A stretch of 64,000 nucleotides of DNA from a virus (Duplodnaviria; Heunggongvirae; Uroviricota; Caudoviricetes), in IMG/VR virus record IMGVR_UViG_3300035034_002381, positions 1 to 64,000 of that record; one strand, 5' to 3'. The notes below the pieces were generated by a model. It did no database searches, had not been told where the DNA came from, and saw only the letters and a list, made by a program, of their open reading frames with translations. Shown here piece by piece: positions 28,661-64,000 of the stretch (positions are counted from its first letter, which is position 1; each line of letters starts with the position of its first letter). The position numbers were made by a program, and so were the translations under genes.

Positions 28661-28670
28661 AAAACATACT

Positions 28671-28949
28671 ATGAGCAAAGATTTAGAAAAAGCTAGTGAG
28701 ACACTAGAAGAAACATTGACAGATATCCAAAAGGTGGCAGCTGCTAATTTTTATGATATTGTACAAATTAGTTTAGCCGATAAAGAAGGTAAAGTAGTTG
28801 GTAAAGCTTCTATGAAATATGAAGATATTTTAGCAATGACTAAGATGCATACACAAGATTCTTCACACGTTGTAGGAATGTTATTTCATGCAGTCGAATC
28901 AGAAACTCGTAACAAATTACGAGAAGAAAAAGAAAATGAAGCCAAATGA
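28671..28949 (+). CDS. hypothetical protein
   Basis: Internal ATG of listed ORF 28560..28949 chosen to avoid overlap with upstream gene. Confidence 0.4.
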   Translation: MSKDLEKASETLEETLTDIQKVAAANFYDIVQISLADKEGKVVGKASMKYEDILAMTKMHTQDSSHVVGMLFHAVESETRNKLREEKENEAK

Positions 28950-29134
28950 TTTTTAAAGTAAGAGTAGAAGAAAAGAGCATAGAAGATGTTATAGAACTTA
29001 TTGAAACAGGAGAAGGGAAAAAAGGTCTCCAATTTGATCTATATAATGAAAAACCATATTTTTCACATGTAGAAATTTTCGTTAATACTGATGATTTCTA
29101 CACATTAAAGGATTATTTAAATGAACAAACCTAA
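28946..29134 (+). CDS. small hypothetical protein
   Basis: 62 aa; ATGA overlap. Confidence 0.35.
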   Translation: MIFKVRVEEKSIEDVIELIETGEGKKGLQFDLYNEKPYFSHVEIFVNTDDFYTLKDYLNEQT

Positions 29135-31064: not shown

Positions 31065-32362
31065 TGTACATTATAAAAAACAATAAACTTGAATCTACTG
31101 ATAATATCGATTTATTTTTTAATGAGATAAATGTTGGACAACATATTGCTAAATATGGATATTTCGAAAGTGACCTTATTAATTGGTTAAAGCTTACATA
31201 TAAAAATAATGATAAAATCTTTTTAGATTTAGGAGCGCACATAGGTTCATATTCAATAGAATTAGCAGAAAATTTTCATTCAGTTCATTCATTTGAACCT
31301 AATCCAACAGTCTATAATCATTTATGTGCTAATGTTGCATTAAAGAGATTATCAAATAGGGTATTTCCACACAGAGTTGCATTATCGGATAATAAATCTA
31401 AACAGCCATATTATGAGAGATCCAAAGATGGTGGAGGTAATGGAATTGAAGTTGTAAGAGAGAACGATAAGCACTCATTCTTTGTAGAATCTAAATGTTT
31501 AGATGATTATTCTTTCGATAAAGAAATCGGTTTGATTAAAATTGATATCGAAGGTCATGAGTATAAAGCTATTTTGGGTGCATATGAAACTTTGAAAAAC
31601 TCATATTTCCCACCTATAATTTTCGAATCTTGGGCGCAAAATACACACCCAGAATATTCACAAGAAATACTTTTAGAAATTCGTGATAAAACATTTGATG
31701 TATTAAAGGATTATGGATACACTGTTAAATCCATAAGTGGATATAATGAAATGTTTATTGCTGTTCAAGAGCGTGAAAAATCTCAAGAAGATATTATTGT
31801 TGAAGGTCTTTTGACAGATAAGTTAGACGTATGGCTTAACTCACCTGGAGGGACTCGAAGCAATTATATAGCCGATGTTCTAGAAAAAAGTAATTTAAGA
31901 GTGAGAAACGAATCCTGGTATAAGTATGGTTGTCATTGGACTTCTCCTTTATTTGAAAGGGAATTTAAAACTACAAGATTGTTTTGCTACACTAGCGATA
32001 TCGGACTCGCATTGACAAGTCAGTTAAATGCCAATACTATTGATAAACTGAATTTTGCAGATTTTTATAATGAACCATGGGATTTATATCGATGGATACA
32101 AAATATTAAAAAACAAGTGATTAACTGGTCGGATCCTGGCGTATTCTTTTTAAATACCGACTATTTAAATGATAAAGATATTCAGTCTGAATTTAAAACT
32201 CTTACTGGAGATAGTTTAGACATATCAGATTTCAGACTTGACCGTAAATCTAAAAAATTACATCCTGCATTAATACAATACATGGATGAGATTAATGAGA
32301 TTAATGAGTTATTAGCAAAATTACCTAATGCCGGTTTTGGCGGAGAAGTTGATGAAGGTTAA
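31064..32362 (+). CDS. FkbM-family SAM-dependent methyltransferase, two-domain
   Basis: FLDLGAHIGSYSIELAE (FkbM glycine-rich motif) in N-terminal domain. Confidence 0.5.
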   Translation: MYIIKNNKLESTDNIDLFFNEINVGQHIAKYGYFESDLINWLKLTYKNNDKIFLDLGAHIGSYSIELAENFHSVHSFEPNPTVYNHLCANVALKRLSNRVFPHRVALSDNKSKQPYYERSKDGGGNGIEVVRENDKHSFFVESKCLDDYSFDKEIGLIKIDIEGHEYKAILGAYETLKNSYFPPIIFESWAQNTHPEYSQEILLEIRDKTFDVLKDYGYTVKSISGYNEMFIAVQEREKSQEDIIVEGLLTDKLDVWLNSPGGTRSNYIADVLEKSNLRVRNESWYKYGCHWTSPLFEREFKTTRLFCYTSDIGLALTSQLNANTIDKLNFADFYNEPWDLYRWIQNIKKQVINWSDPGVFFLNTDYLNDKDIQSEFKTLTGDSLDISDFRLDRKSKKLHPALIQYMDEINEINELLAKLPNAGFGGEVDEG

Positions 32363-32816
32363 AAATATGAAATTAGAAATTGATTTTAGTTTGAGCGATT
32401 TAAAAAATAATTGGAAACCAAAAATTAAGATTTGGTTATCATGGGAGTACTAAAGGTGATAAGATAGAATTTGAAATGTATTTTGATGAATATCACAGTG
32501 AATGGACTTCTTTTAAAGATAAAGCGTTTAAAGGATTTGTTCTTAAAAAAATAGATAGAATATTAGACGAAAATTGTTAAAAGTCAAATATTTTGATTAT
32601 ATTTATCCTAAATTAATAACAATGGAATATAAATATAATGAGCTGGAAAAACTTCTTATTCTTATGGGTAAAAAATATCCAAATGACCATGATCTTGGCA
32701 ATCAAGCGCGTAAACTTATTCAAAAGATCAAAGAAAAATAAATTCAATCCAATAGCTGATTGGAGGCCGTTAACTGAGGAAGAATTAAAGTCAAATCTTT
32801 TTAAACCACCCTTTTA

Positions 32817-33455
32817 ATGAACATATTTGTTCTTGACGAAAATGTCAAAAAATGTGCCGAATATCATTGTGATAAACATGTTGTCAAAATGATTACTGAG
32901 CATAATCAAATTTTGGGTTCGATTTCTTATTTACGTAGAGGTATTTCTAAAAAATCGGAAATAACTGATGAATTTATTCAACAACATTTCCAAAATTTTC
33001 CTAGAAAAAAATTAGCAATTGATATGGATTCATTACCCATTGCTGATCATTCGCCACTTATCAAAAAATTATGGAATTTTGTAAAACCCGCAGAATTGTC
33101 TTGGCCGTACGGTATTGGTTATAAAAATCATCCATGTACACAATGGGCTAATGCGTCTAAAGAAAATTATGATTGGCTATGCTCACTCAATCTTGAATTG
33201 TGTAAAGAATATACTAAACGATATAATCGTCGACATGCTGGTGAGGATATTACTCAATGGTATATTGAAAACGCACCATATCTACCGAATTCTGGCATGA
33301 CTCCATTTGTTTTAGCTATGCCTGATGATTGTAAATCTGATGATCCAGTTGAATCTTATCGAATTTACTACATTTATCATAAATATAAATTTGCCAAATG
33401 GAAAACAAAAGTTCCAAATTGGTATATAAACGTTATAAAACATCAAGAAATATGA
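32817..33455 (+). CDS. hypothetical protein
   Basis: 212 aa. Confidence 0.5.
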   Translation: MNIFVLDENVKKCAEYHCDKHVVKMITEHNQILGSISYLRRGISKKSEITDEFIQQHFQNFPRKKLAIDMDSLPIADHSPLIKKLWNFVKPAELSWPYGIGYKNHPCTQWANASKENYDWLCSLNLELCKEYTKRYNRRHAGEDITQWYIENAPYLPNSGMTPFVLAMPDDCKSDDPVESYRIYYIYHKYKFAKWKTKVPNWYINVIKHQEI

Positions 33456-34009
33456 CAATCAAACACAGAATAACTGATTCTGAAAATACCCATGTTATGC
33501 TCGACATAGAAACTTTGGGTACTGGTGCTAATGCAATCATTTTACAGATTGCAATGGTCAAATTTGGTCTTAACGATCAAAATGGTGAAACAATGAAAAC
33601 TATAGTTAATGTTTTTCCTTGTATCAAAGAACAACATGATGAAGGTAGAACAATGACTTTCGATACAGTTAACTGGTGGCTTGGTCCAGATCATGTGAGC
33701 ATATTAGCAAATCTGCGGAAACAGGAAACATCCAATTTGGTAGATGTTAGATCTCAAATAGCTAAGCACATGGAAGAATTTAGGAAATCGGGAGTTCATC
33801 TGTGGGCAAGGTCACCCAAATTTGACATCAAGATTTTAGAAGATTTTTTAGGAACAGATGTGCCAGAACATTCCCGAAGGCACCAAAGAGATGTTAGAGA
33901 ATATGAATTTATTTCGGGCGATCGCCCAGGTGCATCCCATGATGCAGAAGATGATTGTATTCAACAAATTATATTAGTCACTAATGTTATTCAAAGACTT
34001 TTTATATGA
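33452..34009 (+). CDS. DEDDh 3'-5' exonuclease (DnaQ/oligoribonuclease-like)
   Basis: Exo I motif VMLDIETLG; C-terminal HDAEDD (H-x4-D); start at internal ATG with 4-nt overlap. Confidence 0.55.
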   Translation: MTIKHRITDSENTHVMLDIETLGTGANAIILQIAMVKFGLNDQNGETMKTIVNVFPCIKEQHDEGRTMTFDTVNWWLGPDHVSILANLRKQETSNLVDVRSQIAKHMEEFRKSGVHLWARSPKFDIKILEDFLGTDVPEHSRRHQRDVREYEFISGDRPGASHDAEDDCIQQIILVTNVIQRLFI

Positions 34010-34122
34010 TAACCTCGATAGTAGAAATTATTAAAGAATCTCTAATTGGTAAATCAGTTATAGTTGCCGAGTATTACCCGGATAACAATGAGGGAAATTA
34101 CAAATTCTAAAATAAAGTTAAC

Positions 34123-35022
34123 ATGATATCAGAAGAAAAATTTCCCGATGGACAAATTAATTTTAAAGCAAATACAGAGGACATCAAAAGTCTTTTAACA
34201 CCACCATACATTTTATCAAATGATAATGCGATAAATTTTACAATTGATCTAAGTAACTGGGATAAATTTCAAACTTTGTTGGCAGCCAATGCAAAATTTA
34301 GACAAACGCACAAACAAATTAATTTACATATAGGTTATCTTTTTGGTTCAAGAAGTGACCGTAAATTTGAACATGACGGAATTAACTATTTTCGTGATGT
34401 AATTGCTAAAACAATCAATGATCAAAATTTCAACAAAGTTACTGTATTTGATCCACACTCACTTGCAGTAGAAAATGCAATTAATAATTGTGAGAGTATT
34501 CATCCGTTCCCACAAATCAATCACCATTTTTTAAATATGGTTGGAAATTTAGATTTATCTGAATATGAAATTGTTATAGCGTCTCCAGACCTTGGGGCAT
34601 ACAAAAAAGTCTTTGGAATTTTTGCTAAATTTTCCGAAAAATATCCAAACATACATTTTAATTTTATTTCCGCAAATAAAATTCGTAGTCTGTCTGGTGA
34701 TATTTCTATGGTTTTAAATCCACCATATAAAGAATTTGACAAATCAAAAAAACGAATTCTATATTTAATTGATGATATTTGTGATGGCGGGAGGACCTTT
34801 ATAGAATTTGCTAAACTTCTTAACGAAGATTTTGAGAAAAAGTATCTATATGTATCACATGGAATATTTTCTAAAGGTCTTGATCCATTATTAGAACATT
34901 TCGATAAAATTTTTACTACAAACAGTATTTCGAATACTTATATCAAATATCTAACAAACGATAATACCATTCTAAATTCTAACATTCTTTTTACCACATT
35001 TATTTCGCAACGCAATGAATAA
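34123..35022 (+). CDS. ribose-phosphate pyrophosphokinase (Prs) homolog; could be an Adps-type enzyme
   Basis: 299 aa; PRPP-binding loop ILYLIDDICDGGRTF; VTVFDPHS resembles Prs DLHA region. Confidence 0.55.
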   Translation: MISEEKFPDGQINFKANTEDIKSLLTPPYILSNDNAINFTIDLSNWDKFQTLLAANAKFRQTHKQINLHIGYLFGSRSDRKFEHDGINYFRDVIAKTINDQNFNKVTVFDPHSLAVENAINNCESIHPFPQINHHFLNMVGNLDLSEYEIVIASPDLGAYKKVFGIFAKFSEKYPNIHFNFISANKIRSLSGDISMVLNPPYKEFDKSKKRILYLIDDICDGGRTFIEFAKLLNEDFEKKYLYVSHGIFSKGLDPLLEHFDKIFTTNSISNTYIKYLTNDNTILNSNILFTTFISQRNE

Positions 35023-35989
35023 AAAAGCAACAATTCTTCTTGGACTGCCATTAGCAGGCAAGTCGACTTATATAGGAAACAGAATAGAATATGGTGATTG
35101 GTCAGACACAGGATTAGTTTTAGTATCTGCAGATGATCTTAAAGAAAATCATGAAGATTATGATCCCGACCATGCGTATAAAATTCATGAGTGGTCAGTT
35201 AAAGAGGCCGAAAGGCAAATGAAAGAATACTCAGAATTTGGATCAAAACACATTATCATGGACGGTGGTGGCATTAACAATTCATATACTCGTAGAATTA
35301 TGTCTGATCTACGTTTAAAAGGTTATGAAATTGAACTTATACATATTAAAACGCCGCTCCAAGTTTGTCTTCTTAGAAATGAGAAGCGGGTCCGCAAAGT
35401 TCCAGTGCATGATATTGTAACAAAGGCAGCTCGAGAACGTAAACAATATGAGATACTTAAAGATGTTGTAGATAGTGTTACTATAGTTCCATATTTCACA
35501 AACAAACATATTTTTATAGATATGGATGGAGTTATTGCGGGACAGTCTGTCTTGCCAGAATTTGAAGGAAAAATAGATTTTGTTAATAGCGAAATTTTTA
35601 CTATTTTACCACCTGTTCATCAAGTTATTGATAAACTTAATAGTCTTGATTCTGAAAAACATACACTTTATATTTTATCAGCAACACCGAATTCATATTC
35701 GTATACTGAAAAACATGATTGGTTAGATAAACATTTTAACATACCAAGAGAACGCAGATTTTTTGTAAATGCTGGAAAGCATAAAGCAGAAATGTTAGAA
35801 AATCTAAGAATAAAACTCAAAACTGATAAACGTGATGTCACTCTGATTGAAGATACGCACTCGACACTTAAAGATGTTAGAGACCTTAGAATGAATCCAA
35901 TACATGTATCTGAATTTTTATCAAATGATTTTTTGCGAGATGAAGAATTATATGACTATAAATATTACGAAAACCCAAATAATAAATAA
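35015..35989 (+). CDS. P-loop nucleotide kinase fused to HAD/NT5C-like phosphatase domain (PNKP-like architecture)
   Basis: Walker A GLPLAGKST at N-terminus; C-terminal FIDMDGVIAG (DxDGV) HAD motif. Confidence 0.5.
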   Translation: MNKKATILLGLPLAGKSTYIGNRIEYGDWSDTGLVLVSADDLKENHEDYDPDHAYKIHEWSVKEAERQMKEYSEFGSKHIIMDGGGINNSYTRRIMSDLRLKGYEIELIHIKTPLQVCLLRNEKRVRKVPVHDIVTKAARERKQYEILKDVVDSVTIVPYFTNKHIFIDMDGVIAGQSVLPEFEGKIDFVNSEIFTILPPVHQVIDKLNSLDSEKHTLYILSATPNSYSYTEKHDWLDKHFNIPRERRFFVNAGKHKAEMLENLRIKLKTDKRDVTLIEDTHSTLKDVRDLRMNPIHVSEFLSNDFLRDEELYDYKYYENPNNK

Positions 35990-35995
35990 AAAGAT

Positions 35996-37714
35996 ATGAG
36001 AAAAATGAACGCTTTCTTAGCAACCGATGGTTATAAAACAGGCCATCACATAATGTATCCTGAAGGAACTATTGAGGTATATGATAATTTAACACCCCGC
36101 AGTTTTAAATACGCAATCAACAATGTCGAGTATGTTATTGCTGTGGGTCAAAAAATGGCAGTCACAGAAATCAACGATATGTTTAACGAAACATTTTTTA
36201 GACATGAAGATGTTGAAAGACTTGCCTTTCATTTATTTAGACAAGGATTACCTGAACAAAAAGCTAAAGAAACCGCAAGAAATAAAATTAAAGCCGAAGT
36301 ATGTAGTGAAATCAAAAAGGAGTTTTCGTTATATCTAGATATGAAATATGATGTTTCGCATATTGAAAGACTTTGGGATTTAGGATATCTTCCTGTAAAA
36401 ATAAAAGCTTTACCAGAAGGTGTAAAGGTCCCAATAAAGGTTCCTGTACTTACAATTGTAAATACTTTGCCAGATTTTTTCTGGTTACCTAATTTCTTGG
36501 AGACTATTATTTCTAATTTGTTATGGAAACCTATGACATCTGCAACTATTGCGTACGAGTTCAAGAAAACTTTGACTAAATGGGCAATGAAAACTGATAG
36601 CAAAAATGTTTCTATTGTAGAATTTCAGGCACATGATTTTTCAATGCGAGGAATGGATTCTATTTATGCTGCTGCTTCATCAGGTTTAGGTCATGCATCA
36701 TCATTCCTTGGAAGTGATACAATACCAGTAATTCATGCAGCAAGATATTATTATGGTGATCAAGGTCCTATTATACATTCTGTAAATGCTACAGAACACA
36801 GTGTCATGTGTGCTGGAGAAAAAGATAGTGAAATTGAAACATTCAGACGATTATTGCGTCTTTTCCCGACAGGAATCTTATCAGTAGTTTCTGATACTTG
36901 GGATTTATGGAAAGTGATAGTAAAATATCTTCCTGAATTAAAGGACGAAATTCTAAAAAGAGCAGGAAAACTGGTTATTAGACCTGACTCTGGAAATCCT
37001 GTTGATATTATTTGTGGTTTTGATCATAATAGATTTGATACACACGAAGAAGCAGAAAAATATTATAGAACTTATGGAATAAAAGATCCAAAATACTATG
37101 TAAAAAACGAATTCTTTACTGTAATTTCACATTCAGGCAACAATTTTAAATATGCAGATTTAGAAGAGACTCCTGCTGATAAAGGAGTCGTGCAATTATT
37201 ATGGGAAATCTTTGGAGGGCAAATAAATGAAGATGGATTCAAAGTTTTAAATGAACACATTGGCGCAATTTATGGTGATAGTATTAATTTCGAAAGAGCA
37301 AATCAGATTTGTGAGAGACTAGCCAGCAAAGGATTTGCGACTACAAACGTTGTACTTGGAATAGGATCCTTCACATATCAGTATAACACTCGTGATAACC
37401 ATGGATTTGCCGTTAAAGCTACTCATATAACTATTCAACATCCTGATGGAAAAATGGAAGAAAGAGACATATTCAAAGACCCACTAACATCGGTAGGTAC
37501 AAATAAAACTAGTGCTAAAGGATTTATTCAAGTACTTAAAGAAAATGGAGAGTATATTATGAGAGATCAGGTTAGTAGAGAACAAGAAGAAAATTCTTTA
37601 CTTACAATGATTTATTTAGATGGTAAAGTTCTTTCCGAAGACACACTCAAAAGTATTCGTAGAAATGTGAATAACGAATTGGCTGTTGAATTAGGATTAT
37701 ATGAAGTAGCATAA
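35996..37714 (+). CDS. nicotinamide phosphoribosyltransferase (NAMPT/NadV) homolog; could be Namat-type
   Basis: N-terminus NAFLATDGYKTGHH; VIRPDSGNPVD and IYGDSIN match NAMPT conserved segments. Confidence 0.65.
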   Translation: MRKMNAFLATDGYKTGHHIMYPEGTIEVYDNLTPRSFKYAINNVEYVIAVGQKMAVTEINDMFNETFFRHEDVERLAFHLFRQGLPEQKAKETARNKIKAEVCSEIKKEFSLYLDMKYDVSHIERLWDLGYLPVKIKALPEGVKVPIKVPVLTIVNTLPDFFWLPNFLETIISNLLWKPMTSATIAYEFKKTLTKWAMKTDSKNVSIVEFQAHDFSMRGMDSIYAAASSGLGHASSFLGSDTIPVIHAARYYYGDQGPIIHSVNATEHSVMCAGEKDSEIETFRRLLRLFPTGILSVVSDTWDLWKVIVKYLPELKDEILKRAGKLVIRPDSGNPVDIICGFDHNRFDTHEEAEKYYRTYGIKDPKYYVKNEFFTVISHSGNNFKYADLEETPADKGVVQLLWEIFGGQINEDGFKVLNEHIGAIYGDSINFERANQICERLASKGFATTNVVLGIGSFTYQYNTRDNHGFAVKATHITIQHPDGKMEERDIFKDPLTSVGTNKTSAKGFIQVLKENGEYIMRDQVSREQEENSLLTMIYLDGKVLSEDTLKSIRRNVNNELAVELGLYEVA

Positions 37715-37790
37715 TGGAACAAGTTACATAATTTTCTAAAATAAACTGATTCTATTAAAACTTTTCAAGTCTAGATTAATATAAAATATA

Positions 37791-39107
37791 ATGAAAAGAT
37801 CTGGTATTAAAGTAGCGGTATTTCCCATGGGTTCAATTATCCGATTTAGGAAAGATGGAATCAAAAGATCGTTTGGTCGTTTAGAATATTATAATTTGAT
37901 TTGGGCGTTGGCCAGAAATCCAAGTATTTCGGAAATTTGGCTTTTACAAGTTTCTGATTGGGAACAATTGACTGATGATGAAAAAATTGATTTTGATCCT
38001 AGAAAAGTTATTCGTAACATTTATGCGGAATTTAAAGTAGACAAACCTAATAGTAAAAAACAAGAATCTTACGCTGATCTTTGGAACAAAATTTCTCATC
38101 TTAAGCAACCTGATTTTGCAATTGTATTTTCTACACAAGGTCTTACTAGAATTTCTATACCAAATATTATACCTAAAGTAAAAAATCCTGAAGAAAAAGC
38201 TAAATGTTTAGAAATGACAATACGCTATTGTTCTTCACAAATGTATTATCTAAACAATTCAGAAATTCCATATTTTTTGGTAGTTAATGATGGCAGATTT
38301 TTGTATACTAATACACATACAAAATATCTGGATATGTTTAATTTACCCAAAGAAATCATGGGATTTTACAAAAATGATGATTATATACTTCATCATTATG
38401 ATAAAATGCCGGATGATGGTGGCAAAATGACTACTGATGTTGTTAAGTTATCATACAGTAAAATGATTTGGCTTAATAATATCAGTGAAAAAATCATAGA
38501 CCCTGCCAACATAGAGAAAACTGAAAAGTTTTCTATTGTAGCTATGCAGGCAGCTTATGGTAAAGATAAACATGATCCTAGATATTCTATTCTAAAGGAG
38601 TGGTTTTTAGACGTAGATGGAAATGAAGATGTTTCGATTTATGGTAAATGGGGAGAATCTTATGTTAAAGATTATCAACATTTTAAAGGCTTAAAGCCAC
38701 ATACTGAAATTGATGAAATTTTCAAGAAAACTAGGTACACATTATTGATTCCAACAGAACCTTTATGGGTAACTACGAAAATATGTGAGATGTTGAAATT
38801 GGGTGTTGTCCCGTTTTTGCATCCTAGTTATGATGAAAAAAATCTATCATTTGGAGAGGATTCATTTTTTAGAGTAAAAAATCCGGAAGATTTAAAAAAG
38901 AAGATTTCATTTTTAGAAAAAAATCCAGATAAAAGAATCAAGCTCATACAAAAGGCTCAAGAAAAATATATGGAAGGTGTCACAAACGGAACTTGTGTCG
39001 TCGACGCAATTAATCCATATCTTCAACGGGCTAATATTGATGTAGAATTGCAACATGGATTTAGTGATGAACTAATTCGTAAGCGCAAAGTTAAAAAATT
39101 ATTTTAA
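37791..39107 (+). CDS. hypothetical protein (possible GT-B-like glycosyltransferase C-terminal half)
   Basis: 438 aa; C-terminus ...EMLKLGVVPFLHP faintly GT-B like. Confidence 0.45.
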   Translation: MKRSGIKVAVFPMGSIIRFRKDGIKRSFGRLEYYNLIWALARNPSISEIWLLQVSDWEQLTDDEKIDFDPRKVIRNIYAEFKVDKPNSKKQESYADLWNKISHLKQPDFAIVFSTQGLTRISIPNIIPKVKNPEEKAKCLEMTIRYCSSQMYYLNNSEIPYFLVVNDGRFLYTNTHTKYLDMFNLPKEIMGFYKNDDYILHHYDKMPDDGGKMTTDVVKLSYSKMIWLNNISEKIIDPANIEKTEKFSIVAMQAAYGKDKHDPRYSILKEWFLDVDGNEDVSIYGKWGESYVKDYQHFKGLKPHTEIDEIFKKTRYTLLIPTEPLWVTTKICEMLKLGVVPFLHPSYDEKNLSFGEDSFFRVKNPEDLKKKISFLEKNPDKRIKLIQKAQEKYMEGVTNGTCVVDAINPYLQRANIDVELQHGFSDELIRKRKVKKLF

Positions 39108-39110
39108 ATT

Positions 39111-40319
39111 ATGAAGAATAAATTTTCTAAGGATGGACATTGGAGATTCGGTACTATAGTTCCATTAATCGGGGGAATGACCATATCCAACCAACAAGCA
39201 ACCGGAGATAATCCGGACTTTTTAATATCTTATCCAGCGTTTGCAGGCAATGATTCTCATTGTGTTAATCATTTTAAAGATACCCCATATTATGTAGTCG
39301 ACCCAGAAACTAATGAATTACCTGAAGACGATACTTTTCAAAATGTAGATTTTGTGTCTGCAGTGTGCCCATGTGCAGGACTTTCTATGTTAAATACTTC
39401 TAAGAAAAGAGGATCTGATGCAGAAATGAATAATTGGATGTATAAATCTGCAGAATTAGTTTTAGAACAAATTAAACCCAAAGTTTTTTGGGGGGAGAAT
39501 GCACCAGGTCTATATACAAAATCTGGTGAAGGTGTAGTCAAAAAATTGAGAGAAATTGCTGAAAAGAATGGTTATGTACTTTCATTAGTCAAAACTAATA
39601 CCTTTTTACATGGTATACCACAACATAGAACTAGAACTTTTTACTTTTTTTGGCAAGGTAAACATGCGCCAATACTGAATTATACCGAGCGGGATGCACC
39701 AACTCTTAAAGAATATCTAGATCAAATTCCTGAAAATGCTTCTATGCAAGATGAAAAATTCGGCTTAGAAAGTATGAATAGTCTTTGGTTTAAATTCTTA
39801 AAAGATCAAAACATAAAAATTTCAGATGTACAAAAAAGTACGTGTAAATCAATTATGGATTATTGTGTAGCCGAAAAATTGATGCCGAAAATGGTTGATT
39901 GGGGTGAAGAAAATGGATATGATAAAATGGTCAGGACTGCTAAGCATATTCTACATAAACAATCTATGGGTAAAGGTTGGTGGGACGCTACACCATTAGT
40001 ACCAACAGATACTATTAATGCGCTGATTAGTAAGAATGCTGGAATTGTCCACCCGAACGGAGAAAGACCAATTAATACCCGAGAAGCTTTATGGTTAATG
40101 GGATTACCACATGATTTTACTATGGTCGATTATGACAATAGAAAAAATAGCAATCACATTTGCCAAAACGTACCGGTAACCACTGCAAAAGACTGGACAT
40201 TCGAAGTGATGAAATTTATCAATAAAGATATTGAAAAAATTGCAACGCCGTTTCTAAAACAAAACAATATCAAACAAAGAATAGATTTACAAGAAAATAA
40301 ATCCAAAGCACTTTTTTAA
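39111..40319 (+). CDS. DNA (cytosine-5)-methyltransferase-like protein
   Basis: VPLIGGM (motif I-like), VCPCAGLS (PC catalytic motif IV), GENAPGL (ENV motif VI). Confidence 0.55.
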   Translation: MKNKFSKDGHWRFGTIVPLIGGMTISNQQATGDNPDFLISYPAFAGNDSHCVNHFKDTPYYVVDPETNELPEDDTFQNVDFVSAVCPCAGLSMLNTSKKRGSDAEMNNWMYKSAELVLEQIKPKVFWGENAPGLYTKSGEGVVKKLREIAEKNGYVLSLVKTNTFLHGIPQHRTRTFYFFWQGKHAPILNYTERDAPTLKEYLDQIPENASMQDEKFGLESMNSLWFKFLKDQNIKISDVQKSTCKSIMDYCVAEKLMPKMVDWGEENGYDKMVRTAKHILHKQSMGKGWWDATPLVPTDTINALISKNAGIVHPNGERPINTREALWLMGLPHDFTMVDYDNRKNSNHICQNVPVTTAKDWTFEVMKFINKDIEKIATPFLKQNNIKQRIDLQENKSKALF

Positions 40320-56104: not shown

Positions 56105-59023
56105 ATGTCAGCAAATACTAAATATCTAAAAAGAAAGCATGTTTCTAAATTTTTGCAATCTGCACAATTTTTAGGAAAAAGAGGTGTCCTACATAATGAT
56201 TATGACGAACCTACATACGTTGGGTTCTGGGTAGAATTTGATTTTGTTGGCCCTTCATTAGATGATCCTGCGCTGATTAATTATAATCGGATGCCTAATG
56301 GACTTTTAGGTACTGAAAATGGTACATATTCGGCTGAAAAATATCTTAGAAGCATCAACGAGGATCGTAAGGCTGATATGATTAATGCGTTTAATAAACT
56401 TCTTCGAGATATTTCTAAAGAAACTCCGGATGCAATAGCATCAATATCGGGTTTGGATTCTCTGTATAAATTAGATCCGACAAAAAGTTGGAGAGCATCA
56501 GAAGCTGAAATTACATTGAATTTTGAAGAATCTATAGATAATCGCATCAACGCACTGTTTGATCTTTATCGCCAGGGTGCATTCGATGCGTCATTTATGC
56601 GTTGGGCATTACCGGATATTCATAGGTTTTTTAAAATGAATATTTATGTTACAGAGTTTAGAGCTTTCCATGTACCAAGAGGTAATAACGAAAGAGCAAC
56701 ACTAGAAGAAAATGAAGACTTTATAGATATAGGAGATCAAAATAGATCAGGTAAAAGTTTTTTGAATCAACAAGTTGATGGATACAAAACACAATTCAAT
56801 AATATCAGTGATTCAATTAATGAAAGAACTGCTACAGGACCTGATGGTAAAAGTCGTCTAGCAAGTGAAGTGAGTTCAGGATCATTTTTCAGTGCACAAA
56901 CGTCTGATGATATTTCAACTAACGATTATTTTTTGAAGGTTCTCGATAAGAATCTCACGATATTAAAATTTGAACTTGGTGACTGTGAAATTGTTTTACC
57001 TGAACTTGCACCTTCGTGGACACAAGAAATATCAAATCAAATTCATGGAGAATCTTTAACAGCAGCAATGAAGATAAAAATTGGTAATATTTGTGAGGTT
57101 AATGAATATTCAGCTTTAGGTGCTAGCTTATTTCAAGGTTTAGATAATTTAAGTGATTACGTTTTATCCTGTAAATTCAAAACACAGAAAACTGATATTG
57201 ATAAATATTTCGAAATTTTAGGTGATAGTTCTAAATCTACTGCGGACAGTGTCTATTCTGACGTTAATTATCCTTATGGTAAAGGACATTTAACAAACAG
57301 TGATAATGAAATTTTTAAAGGCATAGGCGAAAGATTGTTAGAAAATTCATTTACATTATTAGAATCTACTATACAAAATGCAGTGAGTGAAGAAGTTAAT
57401 GGTGTGTTTTTAGGAAATGTTTATAATTTTTCTGCTGCAAGTGCATTCAGAAGCTTATCAGCTGATCCAAGAGCAATTGGTGCATCACTTTCACAGATTA
57501 TTAATAACGCAAATGGGTCTGAGAATGGTGGAGAAATTCTAAACAACATTAACCTAGAAATCACAAGGGCACCAGACTTAATCAAAAATAATCCTAAACT
57601 TGAATTAAATTTTTCAGAAACTAGAGATCAGAATCCTGGAAGCGCAGATATTGAATCTGTTGACCCACAGGAACAAGACCCGGGAAATTCTGGCTTGACA
57701 CAAGTCGAAATTAATGAGTCTTCACCAGGTAACATTGGATTATTAAGCACACCCACCAATCCAGGTAATCCAGGATCAATAGATTTAAGAATACCAGAAA
57801 AAGCTCAGGCAAATCAAGAAAATGTAGATTTAAATTCTCCAGATTCTCCACAAGCCTCTCCACAAAACGCAGATCTAAATTTTACAGAGCCTCAGAATCA
57901 GAGTACAGGAAATATAGAATTAACACAAGTACCAAACTCTGAAGCTGACACGGGTAACATCGGATTATCCGATGTTCCAGTAAATGACATAAGTGAGCTT
58001 GGAAATCAAGATCTAAACTTTAGAGAGACTACAGACGAAAATCCAGGTAATGTTGATTTAGACGAAATTAGTATATCAGAAGGAAATTTAAGTAATGTTG
58101 GTTTAGACATTAATGAAGTGCAATCAGATACAGAAGATAATGTTGATTTAAATTATCCACCAATAAATGATGCTGATCAAAATAATGTACAACTCACACA
58201 AGTCGAGTCCTCTAATGATCAACCTAATAATGTTGGAATAGATTTTTCTGAATCTACTGATACAAATTTAGATAATCTCGAATTGAATTATCCATCAAAA
58301 TCTACAACCAAAGAAGAAAACGTGGGTTTAGATAATGTAGAAATAAAATCAGACAGACCTACAAATGTTGGTTTGGAAATTGATGAAAACATTAATGAAA
58401 CTGACAAAAACGTAGATCTCAATTATGTTAATAACAAATCTAGTGTTGACGAAAATATCAATTTATCTGAGGTCGAATTAAAATCAAAAAGACCACAATC
58501 TGTTGATTTAAAATTTAATACTAATCCTGAAGCTGAAAATGATAACGTAGACTTAGATTATCCTAAGAAGATTAATAAGGAAAATGAACCAGTTGAAAAT
58601 ATTTCATTATCCGAAGTTAATGATCCTAAAAATACTGTAAATAACGTTGACATTAATTATATAGAACAAAAGAAAAAGGAAAGACCTACAAAAATAGAAA
58701 TAGATGGTGATTATCTTAGAAAGGAAGCGCTAGGTAAAATTGAATTAAAAGGACAAGAATCAACAGGAAAAATTGACACGAAAGTAAATGTCAGTTATCC
58801 ACAAAAAGATAAGAATGAGCCTGGCAATTCCGGTATTGAATATGAATACACAACCGAGAAGGATGTTATAGGAAATACACAAGAAGAATCACCAGAAAAT
58901 GAGACTAATTTAGATAACAAAAACGCAGGTTTAAAATATAGAGATCATAAAACTTTTCCAAAAGAAGGAACAGAAATTCAGTCAACAAAACCTATTAAAA
59001 AGCCTAAGCGCAAAAACGAATAA
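56105..59023 (+). CDS. large structural protein with ~400-aa C-terminal degenerate tandem repeats (NVDLNY / NVGL units)
   Basis: 972 aa; acidic repeat region about 57600-58900. Confidence 0.5.
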   Translation: MSANTKYLKRKHVSKFLQSAQFLGKRGVLHNDYDEPTYVGFWVEFDFVGPSLDDPALINYNRMPNGLLGTENGTYSAEKYLRSINEDRKADMINAFNKLLRDISKETPDAIASISGLDSLYKLDPTKSWRASEAEITLNFEESIDNRINALFDLYRQGAFDASFMRWALPDIHRFFKMNIYVTEFRAFHVPRGNNERATLEENEDFIDIGDQNRSGKSFLNQQVDGYKTQFNNISDSINERTATGPDGKSRLASEVSSGSFFSAQTSDDISTNDYFLKVLDKNLTILKFELGDCEIVLPELAPSWTQEISNQIHGESLTAAMKIKIGNICEVNEYSALGASLFQGLDNLSDYVLSCKFKTQKTDIDKYFEILGDSSKSTADSVYSDVNYPYGKGHLTNSDNEIFKGIGERLLENSFTLLESTIQNAVSEEVNGVFLGNVYNFSAASAFRSLSADPRAIGASLSQIINNANGSENGGEILNNINLEITRAPDLIKNNPKLELNFSETRDQNPGSADIESVDPQEQDPGNSGLTQVEINESSPGNIGLLSTPTNPGNPGSIDLRIPEKAQANQENVDLNSPDSPQASPQNADLNFTEPQNQSTGNIELTQVPNSEADTGNIGLSDVPVNDISELGNQDLNFRETTDENPGNVDLDEISISEGNLSNVGLDINEVQSDTEDNVDLNYPPINDADQNNVQLTQVESSNDQPNNVGIDFSESTDTNLDNLELNYPSKSTTKEENVGLDNVEIKSDRPTNVGLEIDENINETDKNVDLNYVNNKSSVDENINLSEVELKSKRPQSVDLKFNTNPEAENDNVDLDYPKKINKENEPVENISLSEVNDPKNTVNNVDINYIEQKKKERPTKIEIDGDYLRKEALGKIELKGQESTGKIDTKVNVSYPQKDKNEPGNSGIEYEYTTEKDVIGNTQEESPENETNLDNKNAGLKYRDHKTFPKEGTEIQSTKPIKKPKRKNE

Positions 59024-59025
59024 AT

Positions 59026-59817
59026 ATGAGTACTAAAAACCAAGAAAAAAGATTATTATCCCAAGATCTTAAAGAGAAAAATTGGATTGGTGAAGTAGTA
59101 GAAAACGATGATCCCGAAATAGAATTCAGATGTAAAATAAAAGTCTTTGGACTATTTGATGATTTAGAAACAGATTCTATTCCCTGGGCATTTCCTGCTA
59201 ATCAAGGAATTTTTGCGTCTGAAGCGGGTGGTGCAGGTAGTGGTTCAGTTCCAAAAATCGGTACTTTACTCAAGGTGACTTTTGAAAATGGAGATATATA
59301 TTCTCCTATGTATCATGCAATACAAAATATTAACCCAGCACTTAAAGAAGAGATTAGAGATGATTATCTTGGATCACATGTGATTGCATATGATGAAGAT
59401 GCAGATTTAAAGATTTTATACCAACCTGATACCGGAATAAAAATCCATCTCAGAGATTCCCATGTTACAATTAATCCTGATGAAAGCATTACAATAGAAC
59501 ATAGGGATTCTTTAAGTATCATAGAACTTGTAGGCGATACAGTGAATGTAGTTACACAGAATAGAATAGAAATGACAGCAGATACGGATATTATTGCGAC
59601 TGCACCACAAGCTACTATTAATGGTACACAAAGAACTACGTTAGGTCCATTAGGTAATTTTGGTGCAGTAGGTTCTGAACCTTTATGGGCATTTCTAAAA
59701 AGTTTAGCAGCCGTAGTTGATGCTAAATGGCCTCCAACACCAGGTATTAATGCTGCAGCTGCAGCGGCAGGAGAAGTAGCAAGTACATCACTCAACAATA
59801 AAGTCTCAGTTCCGTAA
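59026..59817 (+). CDS. baseplate hub/spike protein, gpV / gp5 N-terminal OB-fold like
   Basis: GEVVENDDPEIEFRCKIKVFGLFDD...IPWAFPANQGIFASEAGGAGSGSVPKIGTLLKVTFENGDIYSPMY matches the gpV/VgrG N-terminal pattern. Confidence 0.6.
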   Translation: MSTKNQEKRLLSQDLKEKNWIGEVVENDDPEIEFRCKIKVFGLFDDLETDSIPWAFPANQGIFASEAGGAGSGSVPKIGTLLKVTFENGDIYSPMYHAIQNINPALKEEIRDDYLGSHVIAYDEDADLKILYQPDTGIKIHLRDSHVTINPDESITIEHRDSLSIIELVGDTVNVVTQNRIEMTADTDIIATAPQATINGTQRTTLGPLGNFGAVGSEPLWAFLKSLAAVVDAKWPPTPGINAAAAAAGEVASTSLNNKVSVP

Positions 59818-59827: not shown

Positions 59828-62587
59828 ATGTCATTAGAACAAGCAACTTCAGAACTCAACAGATTATTAAACACTATACCAAATAGATCGGAAGAGATTC
59901 AAAATTTTATTGAGTTACAAAAAGAATCTTTCAGAAACATTGATGGTGAATTATTTCCTAAGACAGGATTTGAAGAATTATCTTCCGCTGAGTTATTAAA
60001 TATTATAGATCAAACTTATCCTGGGTTCAAAGAAAACTTTCAAGAAATATTCGATACAATTGTACCTGTCACAATTAACGAATTTGACTCTGATGTCTAT
60101 AGCGAAAAGGAAATTCTTGAAGTAATTGAAGATTGGAAGAAAGAATGTGCTATTAGATCGTTAGGTCAAGAAAATTTTTCTAAAGAAGAGATTATAGACT
60201 CTGTTAAAGAGTGTCGGCAACAAGTAGAAAATCCTATCATTCCGTTCACAAGACAAGAAATTATTAAGGCTGCATGTGAAAAAATTATAGAAGAATCGGA
60301 AGTAAATCCAGAAGCAGTCATTCCAGGAAACCCCGATATTGAAGATGTTATTGGTGTCGACACAATAGAACCTGAACTAGGAGTCCAAGAATTAGACAAT
60401 TTACTAGAAGCAATCAAGGATCCGACTGATGTGATAATTATCGGAAATACTTTAGACACAATCCTAGAAATTTTAGTAAAAGTTGGTGATCAAATCTCAT
60501 GTGCCACACCGTTATTTAGAACAGAATCTGGAATAATACCCGGAGGATTTGACTCAGGAGTTGTAAAAGAAATATTTGTGACTGTCGGAGATTCAATACA
60601 AAACACAGAATTAATTCACATAAATGTTCTTTCAAAAAGTAAGTTAGAAAAATCTTTTGCTGAATCTAAAGAACAGATATCAGAAATTCAACAAGCTGTG
60701 GCTCTAAAGGAACAACAATATCAAGCTGAAAAGAAATGGTATTTTTTAAGATTAGAAGAAGCTTGGTTATCAGGTCGCTATGAATCATATGAATATTATT
60801 TTTCTGGTTTTACTGAAGCATTACAAAGAAGAGATACAGAAAATCAAAGATTACAGGATTTAACACAAGAAATTACTGATATCGAAGATCAAATCAATAC
60901 ATTATTTCAGGGTTATGAAACTACATTTGGAACTGGATCATTACCATTAGCAACAAGACAAAATTTAAGAAGTTTAATAGATCTTAGAAATGTTATTTAT
61001 ATTCAGATTCAGGGTGCCGTTTCCATTATAAACCAAGCGAATGGTGAAATCTTACAATTAAGAAATGAACAATACATTTTTGCTGCTACTGAGGCTGATA
61101 TTAATGCGGAAATCACGTCCGAAACTTCTATTATTGACGATTCTATTTTTTCTGTAGATATTCAAGGTAATCCAGCACCGAATGGAAATTTTATTGTTAA
61201 TCCAATTTTTGATGGTGGTACCCAAGTTCAATTCTTTATTCCTTCACAAGAAACAGTGAATGCGTATCCATCATCAAGAACTTTGGCAAAAGGAGTTCAA
61301 CAAAGAATCGAAGAATTCACAAATGAATTAGGAATCAATAATACTATTTCTAGATATATGGACGATGACGATTATTCGTTTAGTTATAATTTATCGTTTA
61401 CACGATTCCCTATAGATATTGATGGAGATGACGATGACGCATGGATCGAAGCTGAAATTATATCTAGAGATAATAGGCGAGATAGATTGTCGGGACCCTT
61501 TCATAATTTACGAGTAGGATTTTATTTGTTTGTTACAGAATCTAGTGATACATTAAAATCTACACCAGCATGGAATATTGAAGTTAAGGAAAAGGAAAAC
61601 TTATTAAGACTAAATATTGATAGTGCTATTAATAATGCTGAAAATAGAATTCGAGATTATTCTAAACAATATGGCCACATTGCTATAAAACTTCAGGACG
61701 CGTTTTTAGAAATACCTGGCACTAGTACTTTAGATTCATTTAGAATTTCTCTAGAAAATAAAGGGGCTGAACGACAAGCAGCCGAAGAATTAGTCTCAAC
61801 TATTAGAGGTGGATTAGAATCAGCAGAAGAAAAAATTCAACAATTAGAAGAAACTCTGAATTCAATAGATAATAAGACTTGCGAATATTATAAGATTTAT
61901 TCCACAGAACTCAGAAATGATATTAATTTTAAATTATGTATTTGGCCACAAGCTACATCTTTAAACGGTAATGGTGGTAGTGAAAATGGAGTACCATTAG
62001 TAAATGAGGAAATTAATTATAGATCTAATCCAAGATCATTAGAAGAATCTCCACCAATAACTGATCTAGAATGGTGGAAAAAATTCTGTAATTTAGCAAC
62101 AATATTTAATTTAGTACCCATTTATTGGCCTATTGGATTATTAATTCCTAATCCTAGTGGTATACTCAAAATTCCTTTACCAGTTATTTGGAGACCTATA
62201 TTTGTATTACAGACTCCATTAGCATTGATTGTAATTGGAATTGCACAAGCCGGAGTATTACCTGGACCATTTGTTTTTGTACTAAATCCTAATGCGTTTA
62301 GTTTGGGGCCAGTAAGTTTAAATTCTTGTTGGTTTACTGGTGCAGTCAGACCATTCAAAAAAATTAAAAATAAACCAGGATCTCAAATTTTACCTATTGC
62401 ACCAATTATACAAATAGGATTGAACAAAATTGACATAAATCCGAGTGCTACTTCTTTGATTCCATTTATTAAGGATGATCTGCCACCATACGAAAGACTT
62501 TCTTTAAATAACATTCTATTTTTGTTATTCTTGAATAGTTGGTGTAGTGCTGGCAAGAAAAGCCAAGGATTTTTTACTAACCCCTAA
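59828..62587 (+). CDS. large baseplate-associated protein with Pro/Gly-rich hydrophobic C-terminus
   Basis: 919 aa immediately after spike gene. Confidence 0.5.
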   Translation: MSLEQATSELNRLLNTIPNRSEEIQNFIELQKESFRNIDGELFPKTGFEELSSAELLNIIDQTYPGFKENFQEIFDTIVPVTINEFDSDVYSEKEILEVIEDWKKECAIRSLGQENFSKEEIIDSVKECRQQVENPIIPFTRQEIIKAACEKIIEESEVNPEAVIPGNPDIEDVIGVDTIEPELGVQELDNLLEAIKDPTDVIIIGNTLDTILEILVKVGDQISCATPLFRTESGIIPGGFDSGVVKEIFVTVGDSIQNTELIHINVLSKSKLEKSFAESKEQISEIQQAVALKEQQYQAEKKWYFLRLEEAWLSGRYESYEYYFSGFTEALQRRDTENQRLQDLTQEITDIEDQINTLFQGYETTFGTGSLPLATRQNLRSLIDLRNVIYIQIQGAVSIINQANGEILQLRNEQYIFAATEADINAEITSETSIIDDSIFSVDIQGNPAPNGNFIVNPIFDGGTQVQFFIPSQETVNAYPSSRTLAKGVQQRIEEFTNELGINNTISRYMDDDDYSFSYNLSFTRFPIDIDGDDDDAWIEAEIISRDNRRDRLSGPFHNLRVGFYLFVTESSDTLKSTPAWNIEVKEKENLLRLNIDSAINNAENRIRDYSKQYGHIAIKLQDAFLEIPGTSTLDSFRISLENKGAERQAAEELVSTIRGGLESAEEKIQQLEETLNSIDNKTCEYYKIYSTELRNDINFKLCIWPQATSLNGNGGSENGVPLVNEEINYRSNPRSLEESPPITDLEWWKKFCNLATIFNLVPIYWPIGLLIPNPSGILKIPLPVIWRPIFVLQTPLALIVIGIAQAGVLPGPFVFVLNPNAFSLGPVSLNSCWFTGAVRPFKKIKNKPGSQILPIAPIIQIGLNKIDINPSATSLIPFIKDDLPPYERLSLNNILFLLFLNSWCSAGKKSQGFFTNP

Positions 62588-62634
62588 TTGATATATACTA
62601 AATAAACAATTATCAATTTTTTAAAAATAACAAA

Positions 62635-63840
62635 ATGAATAACATTACTGAACAAGGAGATCCAGATTTTGACTGGGCAACATATGAATCGGAAGATTTT
62701 AAAGGTTATAACAAGGATATCCAAAAAATCTATCCAGAGTCTAGAGTTTTATGTAGAAAAGACTATGCTTTAGATTTATACGAGTTAATGCTGGATTATC
62801 CAGTCAAAATTAAAGATGTCCAAGATGGAGATATAGTACAAATAACCTCTATTGAACCTGTCGAGGAATACACAGTATTAGTTACGACATATAATGGATT
62901 ATCTTTACGAGTAGATTTAACTAAAGAAAAAAGGTTCTGCGGGTTTTACGATTTAACACCCGAAGATTTATGGGAAGTTTTACAATCACCAGAAAATCAA
63001 ACAGAAATATTGGAGTCTGAACCAGTGTATATCGAAATTAAGAATACATCACAAGGGATAATTGGAAGCTTATCTAAAGCTCGAGATCATAAAGTTCAAC
63101 ATGATTTTCTTGAAGAAATTAAAAGCCCTTCTAGTGCATATCAAGCAAAGGTTGTTGGATTAAATAAGGGTGGATTTTTTGTAAAGGTTCAAGGTATTGA
63201 CGCATTTCTACCAGGTGGATTAGCTGCGGCAAATAAAATTACGAATTTTGAATCTTATTTAGGTAAAGAAATACCTGTAATGATTGAAGATTACTTGAAG
63301 GATAATGATACATTCATTGTTAGTAACAAAAAATATTTAGATCATATTTTACCAGGTAAAATTGCAAATTTATCCTTAGATAAGGAATATAAAGGTACAG
63401 TTACTGGTACTGCAAAGTTTGGTATTTTTATTGAATTTGATGAAATTTTTACTGGACTGATCCATGTTTCTAAAATGATTAAAGAAACCAAAGAACTTTT
63501 TAAGAACAGGGAAATTAAAGCAGGAGATGAAATGTATTTCTGGATCAAAGAAATCACTGATACTAACAAGATTATTTTGTCTGAAGAAAATCCTATGCTT
63601 AAAAAGATTGCGTTTGATCAATTCAAAGAAAGTAGTGTAGGAATGATTAAAGAAGGTAAAGTTATCTCAAACAAACCCTTTGGGACATTAGTCAAAATGG
63701 AAAAAGATATCATAGGATTAATTTCTAAAAAGGAATTAAAAACAAAAAATATTTTTCCTGAAGTAGGTGGAACTATTATGGTGACTGTGGATGATATCAA
63801 GAAAAATAAAATTTATCTTTCATTACCTAATGAAGCCTAA
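62635..63840 (+). CDS. multi-S1-domain RNA-binding protein (ribosomal protein S1-like repeats)
   Basis: Repeated S1-like segments: YQAKVVGLNKGGFFVKVQGIDAFLPGG, KGTVTGTAKFGIFIEFDEIFTGLIHVSKM, GKVISNKPFGTLVKMEKDIIGLISKKEL. Confidence 0.5.
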   Translation: MNNITEQGDPDFDWATYESEDFKGYNKDIQKIYPESRVLCRKDYALDLYELMLDYPVKIKDVQDGDIVQITSIEPVEEYTVLVTTYNGLSLRVDLTKEKRFCGFYDLTPEDLWEVLQSPENQTEILESEPVYIEIKNTSQGIIGSLSKARDHKVQHDFLEEIKSPSSAYQAKVVGLNKGGFFVKVQGIDAFLPGGLAAANKITNFESYLGKEIPVMIEDYLKDNDTFIVSNKKYLDHILPGKIANLSLDKEYKGTVTGTAKFGIFIEFDEIFTGLIHVSKMIKETKELFKNREIKAGDEMYFWIKEITDTNKIILSEENPMLKKIAFDQFKESSVGMIKEGKVISNKPFGTLVKMEKDIIGLISKKELKTKNIFPEVGGTIMVTVDDIKKNKIYLSLPNEA

Positions 63841-63844
63841 ACAT

Positions 63845-64000
63845 TATACACAGAATGAAATTTTAGAAGGTTCTAGAATAGGAATCGAGTTTGAGTTTTA
63901 TACCAAAATTTCACCAAATAAAGTAGGAAAAATGCTTTCTGAAAAATTAGGTAAAAACGTGGTAGTACCAAAATCTATTACCGAACTTGAGAAAAAAGAA
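63845..64000 (+). CDS. partial ORF running off the window end
   Basis: Open frame ...EILEGSRIGIEFEFYTKISPNKVGKMLSEKLGKNVVVPKSITELEKKE with no stop before 64000. Confidence 0.25.

Follow-up and report, generated by a model that had tools for sequence, protein, structure and literature searches.

A bS1-related protein with four OB domains in the virion gene block of a putative Mahaphage, and its candidate role in phage translation

Why would a tailed phage keep, among the genes for its baseplate and neck, a protein assembled like the bacterial ribosomal protein bS1? The question is raised by a 64,000-nucleotide stretch of viral DNA (IMG/VR record IMGVR_UViG_3300035034_002381, positions 1 to 64,000; hereafter the window), in which an ATG-to-TAA open reading frame (ORF) of 401 amino acids (aa) occupies positions 62635-63840 of the plus strand and encodes a four-OB-domain, bS1-derived RNA-binding protein. 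A prior reading made from the letters of the window (the sequence-only reading) had placed the ORF exactly, on the correct strand, and the peptide it quoted, KGTVTGTAKFGIFIEFDEIFTGLIHVSKM, is found at aa 253-281. We favour, at roughly even confidence, the view that this S1-like protein is a phage version of bS1, cut to four OB domains, that promotes phage translation.

Domain anatomy and kinship with bS1

At least 329 homologous protein clusters were found in the protein database. The 120 clusters listed are nearly all 380-425 aa long (the few shorter ones are likely partial), share 40-71% identity with the query over most or all of its length, and derive from contigs of up to 202 kb. Because so many clusters of ~400 aa align over the full length and retain 36 invariant columns, the ORF is, judged by its conservation, a real gene and not a chance ORF. 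Short minus-strand ORFs within it (63342-63800, with TTG starts) were treated as chance occurrences in AT-rich DNA.

Pfam S1 (PF00575), the check proposed by the sequence-only reading, matches the protein with 76.4 bits (cut-off 22; E=2.3e-21) over three distinct stretches, of which aa 249-316 scores highest; the outcome that this reading had named as its refutation, an absence of S1 hits, therefore did not arise. The sole other Pfam match, to GH3_M, falls below threshold (19.1 bits, cut-off 23.6). The AlphaFold2 (AF2) model, for which the input alignment held 66 homologues and the mean pLDDT is 86.9, consists of OB domains and helices only; it contains four five-stranded OB units, at aa 67-145, 169-230, 251-316 and 338-396, and its N-terminal segment is helical (aa 14-21, 27-32 and 45-52). 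The earlier count of at least three S1-like OB repeats is thus borne out, with three by Pfam and four in the model.

The four units, all read from the plus strand, differ in how closely they follow the canonical fold. D1' (62833-63069) is a divergent N-terminal OB domain, modelled with a helical insertion of ~30 aa (aa 99-128) between strands 3 and 4; it is not seen by Pfam because it is too divergent. D2' (63139-63324) is an OB domain of the bS1 domain-2 type, whose signature GGFFVKVQGIDAFLPGG aligns with GGFTVELNGIRAFLPGS in E. coli bS1 (the bS1-specific GGF..V..G..aFLPG type). The domain as a whole aligns with residues 105-171 of E. coli bS1 and 136-200 of Flavobacterium bS1, and G179, G180, F181, G187, F191, L192, P193 and G194 are invariant in the family. 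D3' (63385-63582), a canonical RNA-binding S1 domain that coincides with the best Pfam stretch, aligns with domains 3, 4 and 5 (D3/D4/D5) of E. coli bS1 and has G263, F265 and H277 invariant across the family. From general knowledge of the S1 fold, we take F262, F265, H277, D310 and K313 to be the classical RNA-binding positions, and all of these are kept. D4' (63646-63822), the C-terminal S1 domain of the AF2 model, aligns with domain 4 of Mycobacterium bS1 (291-362); its RNA-binding residues are kept in part, with F349, D387/388 and K392 retained and the His replaced, and G350, G361 and K392 are invariant. Mean top-residue frequency in the family alignment is 0.70-0.74 for D2'-D4' against 0.41-0.46 for the N-terminus and D1', D2' being the most conserved domain and D1' the least.

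The top Foldseek match in the PDB is ribosome-bound E. coli bS1 (9gut_B; E=5.7e-21), with 381 aligned columns for the 401 residues, and comparison with a fragment comprising domains 1 and 2 of E. coli bS1 (9guq_B) gives a target-normalised TM of 0.71. By HMMER, aa 136-397 are collinear with residues 93-362 of M. smegmatis bS1, namely its domains 2-4, and aa 145-301 align with residues 85-242 of E. coli bS1, a segment that runs from the end of OB1 through the linker helix to domains 2 and 3. As a single sequence the protein finds M. smegmatis bS1 (8wi7_b) as its best PDB match; the family profile best matches a 591-aa S1 (9zcd_A), of which a 114-residue query is 100% identical to S1 from several Flavobacterium genomes. 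Of the features by which bS1 may be recognised, the protein has the four to six tandem S1/OB domains (four, in the AF2 model) and the domain order, in which a domain 2 of the GGF.V...G..aFLPGS type is followed by D3-type RNA-binding domains.

Comparison with bS1 (9zcd_A; E. coli 6h4n_y and 9gut_B) reveals a shared tandem S1/OB order, domain-2 signature and set of D3-type RNA-binding residues, an alignable linker helix after OB1, and the F[DN]W..[FY]E motif of Bacteroidota bS1. The phage protein differs in its length (401 aa and four OB domains, against ~557 aa in E. coli and 584-714 aa in the sampled Bacteroidota), in an OB1 that is unalignable by sequence and bears the helical insertion, and in the location of its gene within a virion block. 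The bS1 of M. smegmatis (479 aa), representing Actinobacteria, likewise has four OB domains and is collinear in domains 2-4, but its OB1 is canonical and it possesses a C-terminal extension not seen in the phage protein.

Other assignments were considered and rejected. Models for the single-domain S1 regulators (CvfD/GSP13/YabR, ~120-140 aa) reach 44.8 bits against 117 and 41.1 against 148, and the phage protein has four OB domains. Models for S1-domain ribonucleases (PNPase, RNase R/II, RNase E) match solely through their terminal S1 portion, and the name 'RecJ-like exonuclease', given by JGI to a few homologues, is unsupported by domain searches. In PHROGs, nothing matched the protein meaningfully (best E=0.014).

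The N-terminal motif and the divergent first domain

Ahead of D1', at aa 11-18 (62665-62688, plus strand), lies the motif DFDWATYE, which runs into the predicted helix at aa 14-21. The phage N-terminus reads DPDFDWATYESED, and those of two relatives NPDFDWEEYEAS and DPNFDWESYEAT. The pattern F[DN]W..[FY] is present in all 78 distinct Bacteroidota bS1 N-termini examined, from bS1 genes fetched from genomes, e.g. ANFNWHNFEEG in Flavobacterium and GDFDWEAYEKGD in Paludibacter (Bacteroidales), and it is this last, Bacteroidales type that the phage motif most closely resembles. Within the phage family, W14 is at least 90% conserved in the N-terminal alignment; the strict form F[DN]W..[FY]E is found in 29 of 66 members and a looser form in 54 of the 66. 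Across ~500,000 residues of ORFs from phage loci there are 52 occurrences of the strict motif; 44 lie at N-termini, and most of these 44 were assumed to be in the S1-like genes themselves; the background estimated from the same ORFs is ~7e-4 per protein N-terminus. When the phage and Bacteroidota bS1 sequences were compared over the N-terminus and OB1 by hhalign, a 16-residue stretch holding the motif was all that aligned (P=9e-4, probability 23%). Members of a subclade that lacks the motif, described below, also give faint matches to S1_2 (PF13509).

The main anchors of E. coli bS1 on uS2 are an N-terminal helix, whose Phe5/Phe9 stack on uS2 Phe32, and OB1 Lys43, which enters the uS2 zinc pocket (PMC10123108). 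By analogy, the phage motif is suggestive of a host-like docking segment, on the assumption that a uS2 contact of this kind is also made in Bacteroidota.

D1' is less easily placed. Modelled separately, aa 1-150 gave weak Foldseek matches (E>=0.013), comprising chlororibosome S1, E. coli bS1, aIF2-alpha, YabR, Mycobacterium bS1 and IF1. D1' could be a generic OB domain, its identity as OB1 not being demonstrable by sequence or Foldseek comparison. A profile of the same region retrieved 174 matching proteins from 1.84 billion representative sequences. Among the 150 listed matches, the best stretch falls within the first ~230 residues in all but one, the exception being a 963-aa protein with eight repeated stretches; nearly all are ~330-430 aa long or shorter, the latter apparently fragments, and none has the ~590-aa length of cellular bS1. 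As far as this search reaches, the N-terminal module is specific to this phage family.

Lineage, locus and partner gene

IMG/VR holds at least 472 loci with the S1-like gene, on contigs of up to 425 kb. In GenBank, strong phage matches (E<=1e-21) comprise 15 Prevotella Lak megaphages and six 'uncultured phage' genomes, 462-735 kb, and four further phage records match weakly (E 8e-7 to 4e-6). Identity to the Lak and LR7565xx proteins is 32-37%, and the major capsid protein is nearest to those of the same phages (LR756500, 42.7%; Lak, about 40%). The locus is collinear with that of LR756500, where tail and baseplate genes are followed by the S1-like gene and then by neck and wedge genes. We take LR745206 and LR756500-504 to be genomes described by Al-Shayeb et al., although we did not find the accession in the main text of that paper.

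The homologue in Lak-C1 (L008:14940-16100; MK250029.1, ~402.2-403.4 kb) begins with GSFNWTPYEDG and contains D1', D2' and D3'; a fourth OB domain is lacking, and the C-terminus is an acidic/alanine-rich tail. Synteny with Lak-C1 beyond the S1-like gene was not detectable at E<=1e-3, possibly owing to divergence or to the Lak genetic code. Lak phages are reported to recode TAG. No sign of such recoding was seen in the window, where long ORFs read through under the standard code and the stop codons of 48 long ORFs are TAA (40), TGA (7) and TAG (1).

The Mahaphage clade contains the largest genomes of the study that describes it, together with the Lak phages, and the five genomes of >634 kb are, like Lak, predicted to replicate in Bacteroidetes (Al-Shayeb et al. 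2020, PMC7162821). From these resemblances we infer that the window belongs to a member of the Mahaphage clade that infects Bacteroidota. Within the Lak/Mahaphage-like lineage, the S1-like gene belongs to the core.

The position of the gene, downstream of the baseplate hub block, is fixed across relatives. The sequence-only reading had placed it downstream of baseplate genes, and in agreement with this the hub gene, encoding a gp5/Phage_base_V-like protein, is found at 59026-59817 on the plus strand (PHROG baseplate, 4.9e-12, and hub, 3.2e-10; Pfam Phage_base_V, 2.7e-4), in a tail/baseplate block that is collinear in relatives. We surveyed synteny in 80 IMG/VR loci, 61 of which have at least 6 kb of downstream flank. 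Of 57 loci, 34 have a detectable hub on the upstream side of the S1-like gene. Downstream, every one of the 61 flanked loci encodes, on the same strand, a homologue of the 466-aa gene that follows here and a T4 gp13-like neck gene; the start of the former usually lies ~1.2 kb past that of the S1-like gene, i.e. the two are adjacent.

This partner gene starts at 63830 on the plus strand and occupies 63830-64000 before continuing past the window (L001:4672-6072, in the numbering of this phage's own locus), overlapping the S1-like gene by 11 nt at the stop codon of the latter. It encodes 466 aa with an Amidoligase_2 and a pentapeptide-repeat part. As a single sequence it matched no family, and its identification rests on twelve homologues, of which five match Amidoligase_2 (best 1.8e-6) and eight Pentapeptide_4 (best 7.3e-8); its profile also matches MfpA/McbG-like proteins. 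The Amidoligase_2 part features an N-terminal GIEFEF motif and a later IEFRYLGG motif, and the pentapeptide repeats are C-terminal. Scans for promoters and terminators around the S1-like gene found nothing above shuffled controls. Because the S1-like gene is embedded in the tail/baseplate/neck block and shares its orientation, it is probably co-expressed with the genes of that block.

Several neighbours deserve mention in their own right. Between the hub and the S1-like gene, 59828-62587 encodes a 919-aa protein with a very hydrophobic, Pro/Ile/Leu-rich C-terminus, and its positional counterparts in relatives range from 189 to about 1620 aa. Upstream of the hub, 56105-59023 encodes a 972-aa protein with no family match, the C-terminal two thirds of which comprise degenerate 'N(V/I)(D/G)L(N/D)...' repeats rich in N, E, D and P, and of which the N-terminal region alone is conserved in relatives. 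Just past the gp13-like neck gene, a 116-aa protein (L001:8310-8660) matches DUF5661 (5.5e-16) and, marginally, IF2_N (1.2e-5; 25.4 bits, cut-off 25.3). Some 4 kb past the end of the window, between the gp13-like and wedge genes, the same phage encodes a 330-aa ATP-grasp protein (L001:8911-9903), which matches the PHROG 'ribosomal protein S6 glutaminyl transferase' (RimK-like, E=8e-11) and Dala_Dala_lig_C. It is missing from this place in nearly all related loci and looks, from this comparison, like an insertion in this phage. It may be relevant here because bS6 is described as helping to sequester the anti-Shine-Dalgarno sequence in Bacteroidia (PMC13000453).

Further upstream, a T4-like protease/capsid region (17120-22802) includes a gp21-type prohead protease (17120-19195) and a gp23-type major capsid protein (19214-21007). 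An auxiliary block follows the capsid genes (26960-40319), with a nucleotidyl transferase, glycosyltransferases, an FkbM methyltransferase, a NAMPT/NAPRTase (35996-37714) and a C5 cytosine DNA methylase (39111-40319).

A candidate role in translation and its rivals

The S1-like gene is preceded by a 47-nt, A/T-rich leader (62588-62634, plus strand) with no Shine-Dalgarno (SD) sequence, and in this it resembles most genes of the window. We scanned 48 long plus-strand genes for an AGGA/GGAG/GAGG core in the 19 nt upstream of the start, and such a core precedes 3 of the 48, whereas 11% of random 19-mers contain one; between positions -20 and -1, A is frequent and G scarce. This SD-less, A-rich pattern is the SD-independent one described for Bacteroidetes (PMC3155529). 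On the plus strand of the window, two clusters (229-10979) together contain 21 tRNA genes, among them three for tRNA-Met(CAT) and two each for Tyr, Ile(GAT) and Arg(TCT).

Bacteroidota ribosomes ignore SD sequences, and the selection of their start sites is attributed to bS1. The sequence-only reading had supposed that Bacteroidetes-type translation often lacks S1 or has one that works poorly. The literature states the opposite: translation in Bacteroidetes is predicted to depend on an active S1, which binds unstructured leaders rich in A/U (PMC3155529), S1 being predicted to be functional in this group and non-functional in Firmicutes (PMC3155529, PMC5397173). Moreover, all 78 of the sampled Bacteroidota genomes encode a long S1 (584-714 aa), and because of this the phage is not supplying a function that its host lacks; it copies, or competes with, the host's main mRNA-recruitment protein.

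We propose the following, as the working form of the translational role favoured above. In a Bacteroidota host whose ribosomes ignore SD sequences, the N-terminal half of the protein (the motif, D1' and D2') would dock on, or compete for, the bS1 site of the host 30S subunit beside uS2, where the corresponding part of cellular bS1 anchors that protein to the 30S platform. D3' and D4' would take hold of single-stranded leaders rich in A/U, as the canonical S1 domains of bS1 do. In this way the protein would recruit or unfold the leaders of phage mRNAs, A-rich and SD-less as they are, biasing initiation towards phage messages. By analogy with host bS1, ribosome docking is plausible. In E. coli, domains 1-3 of S1 are still able to bind the 30S subunit and mRNA and to melt RNA (PMC3858243), and since these three suffice, a four-domain protein, or the three-domain version of Lak-C1, would be long enough.

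A number of observations weigh against this proposal. The gene sits among virion genes and not among translation genes. The best NCBIfam matches are 30S S1 models, all far under cut-off: the best reaches 85.8 bits against 524, TIGR00717 gives 83.8 against 577 and so the curated bS1 equivalog thresholds (TIGR00717, NF004952 and others) are not reached, and overall the bS1 cut-offs exceed the scores of the protein 6-10 fold. By curated thresholds, and with its OB1 unalignable, the protein is not a bona fide bS1. Nor are D2'-D4' clearly nearer to the bS1 of Bacteroidota than to that of E. coli or Mycobacterium; the family profile scores Flavobacterium at 124 bits, E. coli at 116 and Mycobacterium at 97, and with a single sequence this order is reversed. 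The N-terminal motif match is modest, being short and with P about 1e-3, and one subclade of the family (P0103, P0106, P0110, P0112, P0118 and P0120) starts ~25 residues later, without the F[DN]W motif. A profile search with aa 1-150 found nothing relevant in the PDB and no sequence-level similarity to bS1 OB1, and D1' and the N-terminus are the least conserved part of the family. The OB1 loop lysine (K43 in E. coli), which is invariant as 'AKSEG' in Bacteroidota bS1, has no equivalent that we could find in D1', and no conserved Lys is visible in its beta2-beta3 loop in the family alignment.

Several of these points would also suit a protein that works off the ribosome, as an RNA chaperone or mRNA-binding protein that protects, unfolds or regulates transcripts without docking at the bS1 site, in the manner of free S1 or of CvfD/GSP13/YabR. 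We regard this as possible, if on the unlikely side. It would account for a D1' that is unrecognisable as OB1 by sequence and is the most variable part of the protein, for a family-specific N-terminal module, and for the sub-threshold NCBIfam matches to CvfD/GSP13-type regulators; Al-Shayeb et al. likewise leave open whether such proteins act 'on or off the ribosome' (PMC7162821). It sits less well with the retention of a bS1 domain-2-type module as the most conserved domain, given that this module has little off-ribosome RNA role in bS1 (PMC10123108), with the N-terminal motif of Bacteroidota bS1 type, and with full-length collinearity with bS1.

The host-like N-terminus could instead serve a decoy, in which a truncated S1 lacking domains 5-6 takes the bS1 site or titrates host leaders, thereby blocking or re-routing host initiation. 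The resemblance of the motif to that of host bS1 would fit such a role, as would the number of OB domains, four (three in Lak-C1) against six in Bacteroidota bS1. We nonetheless consider a decoy unlikely: the 30S activities kept by E. coli domains 1-3 imply that truncation need not mean inactivity (PMC3858243), and the strictly conserved RNA-binding residues of D3' would be unneeded by a pure site-blocker.

We think it no more probable that the protein is virion-associated, either as an OB-fold component of the baseplate or neck or as cargo that acts on host RNA or ribosomes early in infection. What speaks for this is the fixed, same-strand place of the gene, with the hub upstream and a gp13-like neck gene and baseplate wedge gene downstream (61 of 61 loci), and the lack of a terminator between it and its neighbours. 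Position alone is no proof of packaging, however; the protein is homologous in sequence to an RNA-binding ribosomal protein, with its RNA-binding residues conserved, and its invariable partner looks enzymatic (an amidoligase) rather than structural.

That partner raises the prospect that the S1-like protein is a targeting or cofactor subunit, bringing the adjacent amidoligase/pentapeptide protein, or another phage enzyme, to RNA or the ribosome. The gene pair is invariable, with its 11-nt overlap, and host S1 provides a precedent in Q-beta replicase and T4 RegB (summarised in PMC13157829). We find this more doubtful again, as being neighbours in a dense, co-directional phage module is weak evidence for a physical interaction. 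The most speculative proposal, which we consider improbable, combines the two genes into a ribosome-takeover unit of Lak/Mahaphage-like phages, in which the S1-like protein would dock at bS1/uS2 and bring the amidoligase to the 30S subunit, where it would covalently modify a ribosomal protein or other translation component, much as RimK extends bS6; this particular phage has the RimK-like ATP-grasp gene noted above. Because the pair is embedded in the virion gene block, it may even be packaged in the virion. A role in RNA turnover, the second function suggested by the sequence-only reading, finds no specific support, there being neither a nuclease domain nor a nuclease neighbour; the first, promotion of phage mRNA translation, stands as the best-supported reading, and is the one that Al-Shayeb et al. 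2020 had proposed.

The translational role is not in itself a new idea. Al-Shayeb et al. 2020 reported a 'possible rpS1' in huge phages that correlates with the absence of SD sequences, proposed that it acts in translation, and described the class in general terms, with 'up to six S1 domains ... in a few genomes' (PMC7162821). The defining combination of this class, a multi-S1 protein in a huge phage without SD sequences, is found here too, and the protein comes from the same lineage and partly the same family, with full synteny in LR756500, an SD-less genome and the same proposed role. The general idea of a phage S1 promoting translation was thus published in 2020, and the present gene is a further example that leaves the category unchanged. 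What it adds to that class is the four-OB architecture, the N-terminal motif, the fixed locus and the partner gene. In the literature cited here, we did not find a defined architecture of four OB domains (three in Lak-C1), a Bacteroidota-type N-terminal motif in a phage S1, the family-specific OB1, a core gene kept at a constant place within the virion block, or the invariable amidoligase/pentapeptide partner. Mizuno et al. 2019 have cautioned that it is difficult to decide whether a protein with S1 domains is a true bS1.

Three viral proteins in UniProt/BFVD match the protein structurally over its full length (E=1.4e-30 to 6.5e-24; 21-28% identity; 373-385 aa): A0A7S9STL2 from Virus NIOZ-UU157 (380 aa, 'S1 motif domain-containing protein'), and A0A8D9CG03 and A0A6J5NIG6 ('30S ribosomal protein S1', uncultured phages). 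All three are probably members of the family described here; their names are automatic, and we know of no functional study of any of them. A phage-encoded S1 has also been proposed to replace the host protein in the jumbo cyanophage PhiMa05, in which bS1 groups with Vampirovibrio bS1 in trees and sits among ribosomal protein genes (PMC13157829), pointing to recent capture. The family described here differs in being old, highly diverged and phage-specific, with an N-terminal module of its own.

These data describe a large and old family that forms part of the core gene set of the largest known phages. If the protein is indeed a surrogate for S1, it would offer a direct route to the takeover of initiation in the Bacteroidota that dominate the gut, and its minimal architecture of three to four OB domains, host-like N-terminal motif, phage-specific OB1 and fixed partner gene provide the handles by which this may be approached experimentally.

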